DNA from: an uncultured Bacilli bacterium
GTDB lineage: Bacteria; Bacillota_I; Bacilli_A; RF39; UBA660
Reading direction: 5' to 3'
Length of the DNA: 64,000 nucleotides
NCBI GenBank assembly: GCA_934096715.1
Contig: CAKOMQ010000003.1
Coordinates: 5,721 to 69,720, forward strand
A model generated the notes under the pieces. It searched no databases. It was not told the origin of the DNA and was given only the letters and a program-made list of their open reading frames with translations. Both the position numbers and the translations under genes were made by a program. Shown here piece by piece: positions 1,797-43,732 of this stretch (the first letter of the stretch is position 1; each line of letters opens with the position of its first letter).

Positions 1797-1820
1797 CAGG
1801 AACAACGGTTTCTGTTTTCT
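1797..1820 (+). terminator. Intrinsic terminator after rnhC
   Basis: Hairpin CAGGAAC-AACG-GTTTCTG (one G.U pair) directly after the TAA stop, followed by TTTTCT. Confidence 0.6.
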
Positions 1821-1893
1821 ATTGTAATATCATTTCTCATACTTATATCAACTCCTATCTATTATGAGATAATATAAGTATATCAGATATACA

Positions 1894-1944
1894 AAAAACT
1901 GATAAAATTATCAACTTCTAACATTGACATTATTATCAGTTTTT
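1894..1944. terminator. Long inverted repeat between convergent genes (possible bidirectional terminator)
   Basis: 12-nt arms AAAAACTGATAA / TTATCAGTTTTT with a 27-nt loop. A/T runs sit on both sides. Confidence 0.4.
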
Positions 1945-1998
1945 ATATTAACATTTATAAGTATTAAATTCTATAATAATTTTTATTATCAAGATTTT

Positions 1999-2250
1999 CG
2001 CTAGCCGCACCCGTGCTACAACGCACTAGGCGGCTCTATTATCGAACGCCCTATTGGATCATGAACGGATCGTCAAGTGACCCATTTCCGCCCAAATACG
2101 CTTGATTCGATGTAAGATAGAAGACTGGGCGAGCGCCGCCACCCGCAGGGTACACGCGGCCGTTGTACACGCTACCGTCGCTAGTGACATCCCACGCAGT
2201 GAATTCACCATTGCTATTAGCCCCATAACGAGAAAGCGTCCATTCAAAAG
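1999..2250. other. Local GC-rich patch over the 3' end and 3' flank of the 2051-3580 gene
   Basis: My hand count gives 132 G+C in 2001-2240 (~55%), against AT-rich flanks. Codon usage switches to GCG/GGC/CGC/GTG-type codons only in the last ~65 codons. The patch continues ~50 nt past the stop. Confidence 0.8.
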
Positions 2251-3580
2251 TAGACTTTGTGGTATCATTATTACTTGGATGCATCCACCCTGTTTTTAAT
2301 GTGGCTTGATTTGCAGTAGTACTTCCTCTTAGTGCTAAAGCACTTGAACCTAAGGACATTTGATAGTCACTTGCATACATTAACCCTATTTTGGCACTTG
2401 GTGTTGTCCATTCTCCTACTGTACTTGTTTTCGTACTTCTATTCATTTCATGTAAATATATTTGTTGTGTTGTTATACTATAATAATTTGGTCCATTACT
2501 TCCATCGTATGTTTTTGTGTTTACTGCACTCCATGTCCAATTCTCTATTTTATTTGACCATTCTGTATTTTGTAAGTAATCGTATGTTGTGTTTGTTAAG
2601 AATCCAGAACCATTTAAACTTGTATATAATGTACTATCTTCCCAATTTACATCTTCATTTGTATCATTCCATTTTGCTGATATTAATTGTTTGTATTTGA
2701 TTAGTTTAACATGATTATTTCCGTTTGAATCAGGGAATACTCCAATTATTCTATACATGTATTTATCTTGATTTGTTGTACATTCTGATTTGTTATTTAT
2801 ACCAAAGCAGATAAAGTTATCTGGGTTAGTACTAGTTCCTACTGCGCCACTTCCTGTATATCTATAGCCATCTCCTTCTAGTCCACTTTGCCATAAGTTA
2901 CCTGAATCAATTAAATATTGTGCTAGTACTGGACCAGGTTCGTGTAACTTACATGAGAATGCCTTTTTATCTCCACTTGTATATGGTTCAATTTTTATTA
3001 TGTATGAATTACCTACTAGTTTATCTTGAGTATTTGCTGTATTTGTTACACTACTTGTTAGTGGTATTGATACACTTTGTCCTTTTGTTAAGTTTTTAAT
3101 TTCTCCACTTACTATGATTCCATTAGTTCCAGCAGTCGTAAGTTCCTTAAGAGTCATTGTCTTTTCTCCAACTACTACTTTTACATCTGAGTCACTATTA
3201 TCTGTTATTGGATTAGTTACTGTTGCTGTTACCTTATAATTATAAGTACAGTCTAGCGCTTCATCTCCTTCTGGTAATTGTGCTGTTGCTAATGTATAGT
3301 TTGGATTAGTTTCAAGTGCTAGTCCATTCTCGTTTTCATTAGCATAATAAGTCTTACCTGCATTTGCTTGACTCATTAGATTCGCATCTAAATTTAGATA
3401 TAACTTAGATGTTTTAATTTGCATTGTTGGATTTCCTAAGTTGTTTGCTTTACCTGATACCTTAGCCCCCGTCTTATCACTAGTTGCATTTATACTAAAG
3501 TATGCATATGTTCCGCCTACTAATAGTAATAATGCAAAAGTGAATGCTACAACTATAAGTTGCTTTTTCTTTTCATTCAT
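2051..3580 (-). CDS. Secreted/surface protein with SipW-type (TasA/camelysin-like) signal peptide
   Basis: 509-aa ORF with an AAAGGAAAGG SD. The N-terminus KKKQLIVVAFTFALLLLVGGTYAYFS carries the GG-T-[FY]-A-Y-F motif of SipW-cognate signal peptides. The C-terminus (WTLSR...GGGARPVFYL...GNGSLDDPFMI) resembles a domain ending recurrent in Firmicute surface proteins. Confidence 0.6.
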   Translation of the reverse strand: MNEKKKQLIVVAFTFALLLLVGGTYAYFSINATSDKTGAKVSGKANNLGNPTMQIKTSKLYLNLDANLMSQANAGKTYYANENENGLALETNPNYTLATAQLPEGDEALDCTYNYKVTATVTNPITDNSDSDVKVVVGEKTMTLKELTTAGTNGIIVSGEIKNLTKGQSVSIPLTSSVTNTANTQDKLVGNSYIIKIEPYTSGDKKAFSCKLHEPGPVLAQYLIDSGNLWQSGLEGDGYRYTGSGAVGTSTNPDNFICFGINNKSECTTNQDKYMYRIIGVFPDSNGNNHVKLIKYKQLISAKWNDTNEDVNWEDSTLYTSLNGSGFLTNTTYDYLQNTEWSNKIENWTWSAVNTKTYDGSNGPNYYSITTQQIYLHEMNRSTKTSTVGEWTTPSAKIGLMYASDYQMSLGSSALALRGSTTANQATLKTGWMHPSNNDTTKSTFEWTLSRYGANSNGEFTAWDVTSDGSVYNGRVYPAGGGARPVFYLTSNQAYLGGNGSLDDPFMIQ

Positions 3581-3659
3581 AATACCTTTCCTTTTCTATA
3601 TACTAAAAAAAGACTATTGCTAGCCTTTAATCATTCTATACACTTCAGTTTGTTTCTTG

Positions 3660-3669
3660 CCCCCCCCCC
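3660..3669. repeat. C10 (G10 on coding strand) homopolymer tract in the upstream region of the 2051-3580 gene
   Basis: Ten consecutive C at 3660-3669, about 80 nt upstream of the ATG. It lies between a 7-bp palindrome (3702-3718) and a -10-like TATAGAAT. Confidence 0.9.
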
Positions 3670-3815: not shown

Positions 3816-4466
3816 TTACATATTTTTGTCTAGAGTGTTTTTATAAATAGGCATTGGTTTATCAAATGTTACTTCATTAAATCTTTCAACACCTTGCTCT
3901 TCACAAAGTTCTAAATATAAATCATCCCATGATAGTCTATAAGCATCATTAATATTTAATCCAAGTTTACTAACATAATTTTTAACAACTTCTTCAGAAT
4001 TTTTTGAAGTACTCTTGTTTTCTATTTCTATACATACTCCAAAAGGATATTCATCTACTGATATTTCAATATCTTCATTTTCAAATACAGTTCTATACCT
4101 TTCATAATTCTCTACTACTTCAAAATGCATTACATTATTTATTATATATATAAAGTTATCAAAGTCTAAAGGATTAATTCTTACTTCTTTTTCTTCTTCT
4201 TTATTAACTTCACTTTTAGTAGTGTATTTTAATCTTTTTTTAAAGCTAAGCTTACACTTTGTTTCAAATTCATTAGAAGATATTCTTAATCTAAATCTAC
4301 CATCTATTTTTTCACTATAAAAATTATATCTTTTATCTGAATGATTATATTGAATAGTTTTTTCATAAGTTCTAGGTTGTTCTTTTAAATTATCTTCTTT
4401 TCTTAATTTACATAAAATATTATTTAATTCTTCAAAAGAATAATAAAATCTAACTTCATATTCCAT
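3816..4466 (-). CDS. CYTH-domain protein (class IV adenylate cyclase / triphosphate tunnel metalloenzyme-like)
   Basis: 216-aa ORF. N-terminal MEYEVRF (ExExK-type strand), a later RLRIS strand and C-terminal ISVDEYPFGVCIEIE match the CYTH beta-barrel pattern. Confidence 0.55.
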   Translation of the reverse strand: MEYEVRFYYSFEELNNILCKLRKEDNLKEQPRTYEKTIQYNHSDKRYNFYSEKIDGRFRLRISSNEFETKCKLSFKKRLKYTTKSEVNKEEEKEVRINPLDFDNFIYIINNVMHFEVVENYERYRTVFENEDIEISVDEYPFGVCIEIENKSTSKNSEEVVKNYVSKLGLNINDAYRLSWDDLYLELCEEQGVERFNEVTFDKPMPIYKNTLDKNM

Positions 4467-4532
4467 ATTTAAACTCTCCTTATTTATTTTTTATCTATCT
4501 AACAACAAAAAACAAGACAAATAATTATCTTG

Positions 4533-5006
4533 CTACTTTCTAGATATACCATCATCCCAGAATGCTAAAGGATTTTTCCATTCAGGATAATGAGTATTAG
4601 CGTACTCTATACACACATCTTCTAATTCTTGTAGTTTTCTCATACAATCAATCACATTAACATAATCATTATATTCTACACTATCTGCTTCAAATAATAC
4701 TTCATCACTATTACCAAAATATACGCTCACTGTCTTTTTATGTTTATTATAAACAGTAACTTTTTGTTTAACAGAATAATAAGTATTTAAAAGCATACTA
4801 TTAAATGTAGAATTTCTTACTATACTTCCCCTTATTCTATTTGCTGAATCAAGTAGAAAAGACACATTATCTACATAGTCATGAATAGTAAATCCTTCTG
4901 GTAATGTAACTTTATAATTACTATCACCTATACTTTCAAATATAAATCCAAGTTCCTTATAATCATCTATACTAGGATGCATTTTACTAATTATAATTTC
5001 ATTCAT
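4533..5006 (-). CDS. Hypothetical cytoplasmic protein (ends ...WDDGISRK)
   Basis: 157-aa ORF with no signal peptide and no family recognised. Confidence 0.45.
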   Translation of the reverse strand: MNEIIISKMHPSIDDYKELGFIFESIGDSNYKVTLPEGFTIHDYVDNVSFLLDSANRIRGSIVRNSTFNSMLLNTYYSVKQKVTVYNKHKKTVSVYFGNSDEVLFEADSVEYNDYVNVIDCMRKLQELEDVCIEYANTHYPEWKNPLAFWDDGISRK

Positions 5007-5046
5007 ATTGTATTTCCCCTATTAAAACAATAAGTTAAGCACTAAC

Positions 5047-5679
5047 TTAACTTATTAAATCATTATCAGCAATTTGATTAAAATATTTATTTCCACCTTC
5101 ATCAAAACTAACTGCTTCTGCGCCTTTATAACTACTTGATCTAAAACTCAAATAATTATGCATAGTATCTAAAGAATATAAGAAGTCTATCATAGCTTCA
5201 TTAACATTCTTTGGTATATTATTCATATATCTAGTATATGAACCACTACTATAAACAGTAAACTGATTTGGTGCGATTGCTTGATAATATATATTATTTC
5301 CTGCATTTTTTCCAAAAACATTACTTACATGGTTATTCCATCTTCTAGAGATAGTTCTATTATAAATAACATTTATAACTGCATAAGCATCATTATAAGA
5401 ACCTGTTTTAGATTCACTAGCTACAATAGACGCTACTACATTATACATATTATTATCTAAACTATGTTTTTTTAATACTTCGCTTTTCTTATCACTATAT
5501 GATAATTCACTAGCGTAAGCTAACTTATCATATTTCTTATAAGTACTAACAAGCATTTGAGAATTTTCATTATAATATGTTGTACTTCTACTAGTAAATG
5601 TACTAGACATTACCATAGTTAATATAAATATATAAATAAAAATTCGATAAAAATTTTTCTTGGCCTTTTTATTTTTCAA
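5047..5679 (-). CDS. SleB/CwlJ-like cell wall hydrolase (Hydrolase_2-like), membrane anchored
   Basis: 210-aa ORF with a TTG start and an N-terminal TM/signal (FYRIFIYIFILTMVM). The core ASESKTGSYNDAYAVINVIYNR...APNQFTV resembles the SleB/CwlJ catalytic domain. Confidence 0.5.
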   Translation of the reverse strand: MKNKKAKKNFYRIFIYIFILTMVMSSTFTSRSTTYYNENSQMLVSTYKKYDKLAYASELSYSDKKSEVLKKHSLDNNMYNVVASIVASESKTGSYNDAYAVINVIYNRTISRRWNNHVSNVFGKNAGNNIYYQAIAPNQFTVYSSGSYTRYMNNIPKNVNEAMIDFLYSLDTMHNYLSFRSSSYKGAEAVSFDEGGNKYFNQIADNDLIS

Positions 5680-5738
5680 TAATTTAGCCGTGAGTCAATG
5701 CATTTTAATATTTCCTCCCTTATCGGCGCACGGTTAAT

Positions 5739-5767
5739 ATAATAGCATATTTCTCTCATTTTGTCAA
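5739..5767 (-). promoter_or_regulatory. Sigma-A-type promoter of the SleB-like gene
   Basis: On the minus strand: TTGACA (5767-5762), 17 nt, TATTAT (5744-5739), with TGC just upstream (extended -10). Confidence 0.6.
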
Positions 5768-5804
5768 ATAATGTAAAATAGCAAATATTACCATACTATT
5801 ACTA

Positions 5805-6755
5805 TTATTCACAATTCTTAATAATATATTTATATAAAAGTAGCTCATTATCAACATTTTCACTTTTAAGAATCACATCATATTTAGCTAAATCTATAAG
5901 CATACTTTCTAGTTCTTTTTTATTATATATTCTTAAATAGTTATCATATTTTTTATATTGAAATTCTTGCATACCCATCTCTTTTAAGATATCTCTATAA
6001 CCTAATTTTTTATCCTTTAATAACTCTATATATAATGTCTTTCTAACTTCACTAGCTAAAGACATAAATACTACGATTGGATCTATCTTATAAGTCTTTA
6101 ATATAACTATATTATTAATACTATCATATAGTTTTCTTTCCATAATAGAATCTACTAATATATAAGTATTATCACTAATAAGTTTACCACATAATTTAGT
6201 AACATCTTCATTGTTAATAGAACATGGCTTATTATAATAAATCATTATTTTATCTAGTTCCTTTATAGATATATCAAAATTACTTAAAGAAGAATCTAAT
6301 ATATACCAAAGACTCTTATCTTCTATTCTATAGTTTAATTCTTCAACATACTTTTTAAGCTCATTTTTCATATCAGTTTTATACATAGAAGGTATTTCTA
6401 TATAATTATTATTATCCATTATTAACTTAGTAATTTTCTTCCTACTATCAGGCTTTTTATCTAATAAGAATATTATATAAGTATCTTTATTTTCATTATT
6501 TAGATATCTGGTTAATTTCTCTATCTCTTCATCTTGTTTTTTAGTATCTTTCTTACCTTGATTAAAATAAGGAGCATTTCTAACTACTATATATTTCTTA
6601 TCTCCAAACATAGATACAAAAGAAGCTTCACTTAAAACTTCATCAAGTGTATTACATGCTAAATCATAAGAAACGTAAGAGTTATCACTAACTATCTTTT
6701 TGAGTTCCTTATTAACAAAATAATTAATTGTACCACTTATAATATATGTATTCAT
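5805..6755 (-). CDS. holA: DNA polymerase III subunit delta
   Basis: 316-aa ORF. Pattern FGDKKYIVVRNA...LTRYLNNENKDTYIIFLL...DSRKKITKL...ELDKIMIY is typical of HolA. Confidence 0.7.
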   Translation of the reverse strand: MNTYIISGTINYFVNKELKKIVSDNSYVSYDLACNTLDEVLSEASFVSMFGDKKYIVVRNAPYFNQGKKDTKKQDEEIEKLTRYLNNENKDTYIIFLLDKKPDSRKKITKLIMDNNNYIEIPSMYKTDMKNELKKYVEELNYRIEDKSLWYILDSSLSNFDISIKELDKIMIYYNKPCSINNEDVTKLCGKLISDNTYILVDSIMERKLYDSINNIVILKTYKIDPIVVFMSLASEVRKTLYIELLKDKKLGYRDILKEMGMQEFQYKKYDNYLRIYNKKELESMLIDLAKYDVILKSENVDNELLLYKYIIKNCE

Positions 6756-43563: not shown

Positions 43564-43648
43564 TGGTGCGAGTAAAGGGACTCGAACCCCCACGGATCTC
43601 TCCACTAGATCCTAAGTCTAGCGCGTCTACCAATTCCGCCATACTCGC
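43564..43648 (-). tRNA. tRNA-Leu (anticodon TAG)
   Basis: Reverse complement GCGAGTA...CTTAGGA...long variable arm...GGTTCGAGTCC...TACTCGCACCA. It folds as a type II cloverleaf with an encoded CCA. Confidence 0.9.
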
Positions 43649-43655
43649 AATTTTA

Positions 43656-43732
43656 TGGTGGACCTCGTAGGACTCGAACCTACGACCGCCCGGTTATGAG
43701 CCGGATGCTCTAACCAACTGAGCTAGAGGTCC
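43656..43732 (-). tRNA. tRNA with CAT anticodon (elongator Met or lysidine-dependent Ile2; not initiator-like)
   Basis: Reverse complement GGACCTCTAGCTCAGTTGGTTAGAGCATCCGGCTCATAACCGG...GGTTCGAGTCC...GAGGTCCACCA. The 1-72 pair is Watson-Crick and there is no GGG/CCC anticodon stem. Confidence 0.85.

Follow-up and report, generated by a model that had tools for sequence, protein, structure and literature searches.

Diversity-generating retroelements (DGRs) rewrite part of a target gene from a template repeat (TR). In the prototype, from Bordetella phage BPP-1 (mtd-avd-TR-brt), a reverse transcriptase (RT) and Avd carry out adenine-specific rewriting of a variable region (VR) at the 3' end of a C-type-lectin-like target; the TR/VR homology ends in a GC-rich stretch, beyond which the diverged initiation of mutagenic homing sites (IMH and IMH*) and a GC hairpin follow. 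The Treponema denticola TvpA DGR has seven non-adjacent targets, whose remote VRs match the TR with A-to-N differences (PMC5758913). In cyanobacteria (e.g., Nostoc PCC 7120 all3226), dispersed CLec paralogues keep remnant TR-VR homology near their 3' ends with no RT nearby, and the authors of that survey suggested that diversification is removed once a variant has been selected, which fixes the variant (PMC7517822). Here we analyzed a 64,000-nucleotide stretch from an uncultured Bacilli bacterium of the RF39 lineage (GenBank assembly GCA_934096715.1, contig CAKOMQ010000003.1, positions 5,721 to 69,720; the window), in which a surface-protein gene on the minus strand (2051..3580, an open reading frame [ORF] of 509 aa) ends in an abrupt GC-rich patch. 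We consider it likely that this patch is the footprint of a DGR in a paralogue of the cassette lineage, that is, the lineage of the target gene of the genome's DGR cassette, with a VR that is frozen and a family that recombines.

The patch had been singled out in the original prediction, which was made from the letters of the window, and its count of 132 G+C at positions 2001-2240 was exact on recount (132/240 nt, 55%, 5.9 standard deviations [SD] above the genome). The GC content was 53.8% at 1999-2262, compared with 32.5% in the gene body (2263-3580), 27.0% in the whole window, and 26.7% in the genome, a metagenome-assembled genome (MAG) of 1.21 Mb in 51 contigs that is 93% complete. Among 59,985 genome-wide intervals of 240 nt (mean GC 26.7%, SD 4.8%), 20 had a GC content of at least 50%; these merged into seven islands, six of which are copies of the same element. 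As had been noted from the sequence, the GC richness continues ~50 nt beyond the TAG stop and a hairpin is present at 2004-2034. The patch has three components: a DGR-type VR at 2125..2237, a non-templated coding tail at 2051..2124, and the hairpin in the 3' untranslated region (3'UTR), all on the minus strand. The sole other mildly GC-rich place in the window (43564-43732, 45-47% GC) is an ordinary pair of tRNA genes, tRNA-Leu(tag) and tRNA-Met(cat).

The window contains no RT, Avd gene, or template repeat, as the original prediction stated correctly, and all three are found on another contig (C18) of the same genome. The genome search that it had proposed for a DGR RT yielded one gene, the sole RT gene (RVT_1, E=3.7e-21) of the genome, with the motif IGNMTSQ, of the [I/L/V]GxxxSQ type, read from the sequence. 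The cassette on C18 is ordered as an MSL-like ORF of 128 aa that matches MutS_I weakly, a 113-aa Avd (PF22296, E=6e-8; NF033474, E=2.5e-12; both below curated cut-offs), the 360-aa RT, and a 520-aa target gene paralogous to the window gene, followed by the template repeat TR1. Accessory MSL genes are known in DGRs, and the MSL+Avd set has been described by Wu et al. (PMC5758913). TR1 is a non-coding copy of the GC segment that lies ~260 nt past the target stop and has a 107-nt core with 32 adenines. The adjacent cassette VR, at C18:11643-11749, differs from TR1 at 13-14 adenines, the number varying with the chosen core start, and at no other position within the homology.

The same DGR locus is also present in another gut sample (contig L064), and over 7.1 kb the two loci are identical, TR included, except for two changes. 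One consists of 17 substitutions, none of them outside the VR and 16 at TR adenines, and the other is a 1-nt difference in the length of a poly-G tract that lies upstream of the target. With an RT and Avd, a TR/VR pair with adenine-only differences, and ongoing adenine-specific diversification, the C18 locus is a DGR. A second template repeat, TR2, is present downstream of another family gene on contig C8 (C8:1967-2106, locus L003), with flanks like those of TR1; it is decayed, with a 1-nt deletion and, compared with TR1, ~20 changes that are mostly G>A/C>T. TR2 looks like the relic of a duplicated target-TR module. Contig C8 begins 186 nt upstream of the family gene of TR2, and an RT next door is possible.

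A BLASTN search of the GC segment against its own assembly, another check proposed with the prediction, identified ~45 copies (72-84% identity). The genome holds 57 copies of the domain, and the 69 ORFs or fragments of the family comprise 92 kb, or 7.6% of the assembly. When 45 copies were aligned to TR1, the column entropy was 1.65 bits at TR1 adenines versus 0.65 bits at the other positions (Mann-Whitney p=1.4e-12). Across the family, in codons that have AAY as their template, positions 1 and 2 approach maximal variability and position 3 is conserved, a pattern opposite to that of ordinary paralogue divergence. TR1 itself has 46.7% GC and 30% A, with G+C making up 67% of its non-adenine positions. 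On average, the VR copies have 53% GC and 16% A; the window VR has 60% GC and 17% A. The copies are GC-rich and adenine-poor because the non-adenine positions of TR1 are so rich in G+C and because the A-to-N changes are mostly to G and T. Hence, the GC boundary of the gene derives from an adenine-poor, GC-rich template scaffold and not from a donor of higher GC content.

The window VR (codons ~448-485) was aligned to the TR1 core, from which it differs at 18 adenine and 11 non-adenine positions and by 6 gap columns that correspond to two extra codons, with some of these differences directly by the junction at which the homology ends. In view of the 11 non-adenine mismatches and the two extra codons, the present window VR was not written from TR1, and it lacks the adenine-only differences of an active DGR target. 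TR2 was considered as an alternative template and rejected, as the window VR has 20 adenine and 14 non-adenine mismatches to it as well as the 1-nt deletion.

Comparison of strains, also suggested with the prediction as a check for hypervariability, revealed none in the window segment. The same locus, between the same neighbours, is present on seven contigs assembled from other samples (gut metagenomes of Hadza and Nepal origin, and a second study), and none of the seven differs from the window in the VR, tail, hairpin, or 3'UTR, while the rest of the gene has 1-3 single-nucleotide polymorphisms (SNPs) and the flanking genes in five of the seven strains have up to 47 SNPs in 1.8 kb. At the protein level, the 90% cluster of the window protein comprises four alleles on at least nine contigs, with five substitutions in the body and none in the VR. 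Stasis of the VR was tested in seven non-cassette paralogues, including the window gene; the other six showed one VR difference in 18 allele comparisons versus 1-49 body differences. Alleles of the cassette target had 11 VR differences and no body differences. The cassette copy is the only one that is demonstrably active, and the window VR is a frozen, DGR-derived variant that is no longer rewritten. The suggestion in the original prediction of a DGR VR with its IMH was therefore right about the origin, as judged from the VR scaffold and TR1, and did not hold for present activity. In the closest strain (L065), there are only three SNPs in 6.6 kb (window positions 3460, 3268, and 3067); all are in the N-terminal half of the gene and change an amino acid (V41L, G105R, and I172V). 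In five other strains, the gene and its untranslated regions are 1-2 SNPs from the window and the flanking housekeeping genes are ~2.6% different.

The window gene retains further features of the cassette copy beyond the VR. An IMH-like junction (CGCCCAGTCTTCTATCTTAC, 2112..2131, minus strand) is near-invariant family-wide in DNA, with 37 exact occurrences of CCAGTCTTCTATCT in the genome and 47 at no more than one mismatch. The TR/VR homology ends after CCCAG, where CGCCCAG is followed by TCTTCTATCTTAC in the window and by CTCTCTATAGAGC in TR1; just upstream of the junction, the window has GCT and TR1 has GTG. The window VR thus has the GC-rich 3' end and the subsequent divergence from the TR that are typical of an IMH. 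The tail downstream of it, which encodes …FYLTSNQAYLGGNGSLDDPFMIQ before the stop codon, is an allele of the cassette type with 47% GC in the 70 nt past the junction, and its best matches are the copies on C8, C15, and C18 (88-95%). Family-wide, the tail is GC-rich (at least 40%) in 17 copies and AT-rich (<34%) in 19, and the AT-rich tails encode the same G-[DN]-G-S-L-[DE]-[DN]-P motif by other synonymous codons.

The 3'UTR segment (1960..2050, minus strand) is homologous to the C18 sequence between the target stop and TR1. In the window, this homology extends as far as …GAATTTAATACT (1960), without a TR after it. In a sliding BLAST analysis, 2090-1971 matched C8, C15, and C18, and nothing was matched beyond ~1930. 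These ~90 nt of 3' sequence are common only to the window, C8, C15, and C18, and they lead into a TR on C18 and C8. The hairpin is present in the same four of the ~45 copies. Its free energy as DNA was -14.3 kcal/mol on C18 (z -2.9), -11.9 in the window (z = -2.1 versus shuffled sequences), -9.5 on C8, and -5.3 on C15, and it is most stable in the active copy.

The family members also recombine with each other. In 120-nt segments along the window gene, the most similar paralogue (90-100% identity per segment) switches roughly a dozen times, and the gene is a recombination mosaic of its paralogues; the window VR is without a close relative among them (best 77-81%). At the paralogue at C10:8716, the alleles P0138 and P0002 have an identical VR and different tails, one AT-rich and one of the GC-rich cassette type, and the breakpoint of this swap is the conserved RPVFYLT / CCAGTCTTCTATCT junction. 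The switching between paralogues and the tail exchange bear out in part the mosaicism by gene conversion that had been proposed for this gene from its sequence, although the GC boundary itself came neither from recombination nor from a donor of higher GC content. Eight alleles of the paralogue at C15:18564 (P0144 and seven others), from different samples, share the same VR, with one substitution in one allele; their N-terminal halves are 6-49 residues apart, in blocks, which is the pattern expected of recombination with family members.

We propose the following scenario. TR1 is adenine-rich at the codons that are to vary (AAY) and composed of G, C, and T elsewhere, and copies written from it come out adenine-poor and GC-rich. 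By avoiding adenine, the scaffold confines mutation to the chosen codons, and in a genome with 27% GC it reads as a GC island. The window gene belongs to the lineage of the cassette target, having the same VR scaffold, IMH-like junction, GC tail, and first ~90 nt of 3' flank with the hairpin, and it may have arisen from a cassette-type copy via duplication or recombination. Its silence could be caused by the imperfect match to TR1 by the junction, by the weakened hairpin, or by loss of the adjacent TR. The frozen VR is kept across strains while the gene swaps segments with its ~45-57 paralogues.

Several points weigh against this interpretation. The genome is 93% complete in 51 contigs, and a second RT or a TR matching the window VR may be missing from it; the decayed TR2 means that other templates did exist. 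Stasis was judged on consensus assemblies of eight strains. The segment at ~1812-3610 is far better conserved than the flanks at 1-1811 and 4300-6030, which suggests that it spread recently among strains by recombination, and a recent spread may have left less time for changes in the VR. The tail is GC-rich though its 74 nt are not templated by TR1, and the interpretation does not account for its composition. Lastly, canonical DGR hairpins have a GC stem of 7-10 bp and a 4-nt GRNA loop and lie 4-34 bp from the VR (PMC3240598). The hairpin described here departs from them in its loop of 6 nt and in its distance of 90 nt from the end of the TR/VR homology, and it may belong to the TR transcription unit rather than to target recognition.

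Alternatively, the window VR could be an active remote target that is rewritten in trans at a low rate, by TR1 or by a template missing from the assembly. The window copy keeps all cis features of the active copy (the IMH-like junction, GC tail, and hairpin), remote DGR targets are known in Treponema and others (PMC5758913), and the incompleteness of the assembly and the existence of a second, decayed TR leave room for another template. However, the cassette VR changed at 17 sites with no background SNPs, whereas the window VR is unchanged in seven samples and four alleles; its non-adenine mismatches and extra codons relative to TR1 reach the junction, and the genome has one RT only. We therefore regard current rewriting of the window VR as improbable. 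Still less probable is an origin without any retroelement, either as a 3' cassette from a foreign donor of higher GC content or by gene conversion among paralogues alone. While such an origin would fit the fine-scale mosaicism of the gene, the exchange of tails at a conserved junction, and the coexistence of two compositional classes of tails, it does not explain why the variable columns coincide with the adenines of a template in the same genome, or why codon positions 1 and 2 vary and position 3 is fixed. The RT and Avd genes on C18, judged from their letters, share the AT-rich composition of the genome. The VR DNA is specific to the species, and a search of 42 genomes of the genus found no donor of higher GC content; among the paralogues, the window VR has no close donor (best match 77-81%).

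The GC richness could also reflect selection on the peptide, a loop rich in Gly, Ala, and Arg, or on mRNA structure, unrelated to a DGR. The encoded peptide is indeed Gly-rich, the segment is perfectly conserved between strains, and a small stem is predicted at 2144-2127. However, as 19 paralogues encode the same tail motif in AT-rich synonymous codons, the peptide does not force the GC content, and the relationship to TR1 and the active cassette account directly for the composition. An Rfam scan of the C18 target-TR region, the sole stretch scanned, returned no family. The original prediction had associated selection of this kind with a conserved 3' end that has no extra copies or variability; the end is conserved and invariant between strains, yet ~45 copies and a TR exist. 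We find an explanation by selection alone hardly credible, and favour the DGR footprint with a frozen VR.

The fold of the window protein is consistent with a DGR target. The protein has a basic and hydrophobic N-terminal signal or anchor, with weak resemblance to a SipW-type signal (TIGR04088, E=0.011; a Peptidase_M73 N-terminal match), a beta-rich middle, and a DUF6273-like (C-type-lectin-like) C-terminal domain at residues ~216-509. A Pfam search with the window protein found no family even at E<=10, the DUF6273 hidden Markov model of Pfam did not match it and matched only 2 of 42 family members (E~0.002), and profile searches against PDB sequences gave no match. An AlphaFold2 model of the domain alone (residues 216-509), from an alignment that included eight distant DGR targets of other species, had a predicted local distance difference test score (pLDDT) of 85 and a predicted template modelling score of 0.88. 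A full-length model with 42 close paralogues reached a pLDDT of 45 and was discarded. In a Foldseek search with the domain model, the best match was the Thomasclavelia ramosa IgA peptidase structure 9qa6 (E=1e-6, prob 1.0), and models of phage DUF6273 or receptor-binding proteins also matched (prob 1.0; overall E=1e-6 to 1e-3). The N-terminal domain of 9qa6 is DUF6273 (PMC12402451), and DUF6273 is C-lectin-like and a DGR target fold in gut phages, in which the VR forms a surface beta-hairpin of the domain (PMC10743442). In our model, the VR falls on C-terminal beta strands (model residues ~230-268). The C-terminal domain of the window protein is thus predicted to have the C-type-lectin-like/DUF6273 fold of DGR targets, with the VR near the C-terminus.

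We also analyzed the occurrence of the RT and the protein domain within the genus. The RT is present in ~10 of 18 sampled species (53-59% identity), and 38 of 42 genomes encode the protein domain, with copy numbers that are often 10-30 and reach 68. The VR DNA is species-specific, with almost no matches in the 41 other genomes of the genus, and none of 15 other species of the genus has a family gene beside RNase HIII. Full VR copies number only ~2 in a related genome that is closed (L062/G054), and therefore, in terms of DNA, the expansion is not a general one. The named relatives of this RT come from MAGs of uncultured gut Bacilli or 'Tenericutes', including Candidatus Onthousia; in their cassettes the target lies upstream of the RT, as is usual, and these targets are likewise GC-rich at the 3' end. 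A 3' GC island is a general marker of such DGR targets in gut Bacilli. At three DGR loci in other gut Bacilli MAGs (L052, L055, and L058), the targets are 26-31% identical to the C-terminal domain of the window protein and end in sharp GC-rich patches, with a GC fraction of 0.56-0.57 per 100 nt in genomes with 25-30% GC.

A poly-G tract (G10, 3660..3669, minus strand), which precedes the start codon of the window gene by ~80 nt, is a candidate switch for phase variation by slipped-strand mispairing. It is 19 nt upstream of a -10-like box, TG-TATAGAAT (3642-3633), which was placed by eye; a consensus promoter scan called no promoter at the tract. The genome has 24 poly-G tracts (G9-14), all within the context CTACT-Gn-C[A/G]AGAAACAA, and about half of them are followed by a recognised family start codon 67-82 nt downstream. 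The tract length varies by strain at both loci compared (G10 in the window versus G11 in L065, and G11 on C18 versus G10 in L064). The tract would probably switch expression of the window gene. The tract on C18 is at G000 C18:13214-13224, and two G14 tracts are at contig ends. Tentatively, the family could operate in two tiers, which we call 'generate and archive': the cassette copy would be the sole site at which new binding tips are written, recombination would move them to dozens of expression loci and leave them unaltered there, and poly-G slippage would pick the ones that are displayed. We consider this model a possibility that is more doubtful than probable. If true, a gut bacterium with a 1.2-Mb genome would combine hypermutation by a DGR with the classical machinery of antigenic variation.

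Surveys of DGRs count a VR as a target only on an adenine-only match to the TR. They report no more than 7-8 targets per DGR element (PMC5758913), and metagenome surveys miss remote VR copies (PMC8144416). By such rules, one gut bacterium with a small genome can hold ~45 VR-bearing genes that go uncounted, and comparison of strains tells the single rewritten copy apart from the fixed copies. Should the latter be a stored binding repertoire, DGRs would feed the long-term evolution of gene families beyond moment-to-moment variation. As a practical rule for AT-rich genomes, when the 3' end of a surface-protein gene is a sharp, adenine-poor GC island, this is a good indication of a DGR, even without an RT nearby.

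How does this locus compare with the known systems? The C18 cassette resembles the BPP-1 prototype in all the features given above for the latter, from the RT, Avd, and a C-lectin-like target with a TR/VR pair at its 3' end to the adenine-specific rewriting, the GC-rich end of the homology before a diverged IMH, and the downstream GC hairpin. Unlike in BPP-1, the order is MSL-avd-RT-target-TR, the element is chromosomal and not phage-borne, the hairpin has a 6-nt loop and a distance of ~90 nt to the VR instead of a GRNA loop and 4-34 bp, and the window VR neither matches its TR with adenine-only differences nor varies. As in T. denticola TvpA, one chromosomal DGR is tied to several dispersed VR-bearing surface-protein genes; in contrast to T. 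denticola, only the cassette VR matches the TR by A-to-N differences. The closest precedent for the fixed copies is provided by the cyanobacterial CLec paralogues, target duplicates that likewise keep VR/TR homology without a nearby RT (PMC7517822). However, the family described here is far larger for the size of its genome (~45 VR copies, and 7.6% of the 1.2 Mb assembled), its proteins are secreted or anchored surface proteins and not cytosolic kinases, its stasis and activity are told apart by comparing strains, and its genes have poly-G tracts and recombine mutually. The window protein shares the fold of its C-terminal domain with phage targets of the DUF6273/tentaclin type (PMC10743442) and with the DUF6273 domain of 9qa6 (PMC12402451). 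It differs from the phage targets in being cellular and in having marginal sequence similarity to them.

The vlp/vsa genes of Mycoplasma and the opa/pilC genes of Neisseria are phase-variable multigene families of surface proteins with homopolymer switches. The family described here is similar to these in being a large paralogous surface family with a 5' homopolymer tract of strain-varying length and recombination among its members, and it differs in that the diversity of the binding tip also bears a retroelement signature and that the phase switch is a candidate. Overall, DGRs, remote targets, and C-lectin-like targets are already established, and we describe a known kind of element in an unusual arrangement. 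Distinct in this genome are the scale of the family for the genome size, the contrast between active and fixed copies at the strain level, and the combination with recombination and length-varying poly-G tracts.

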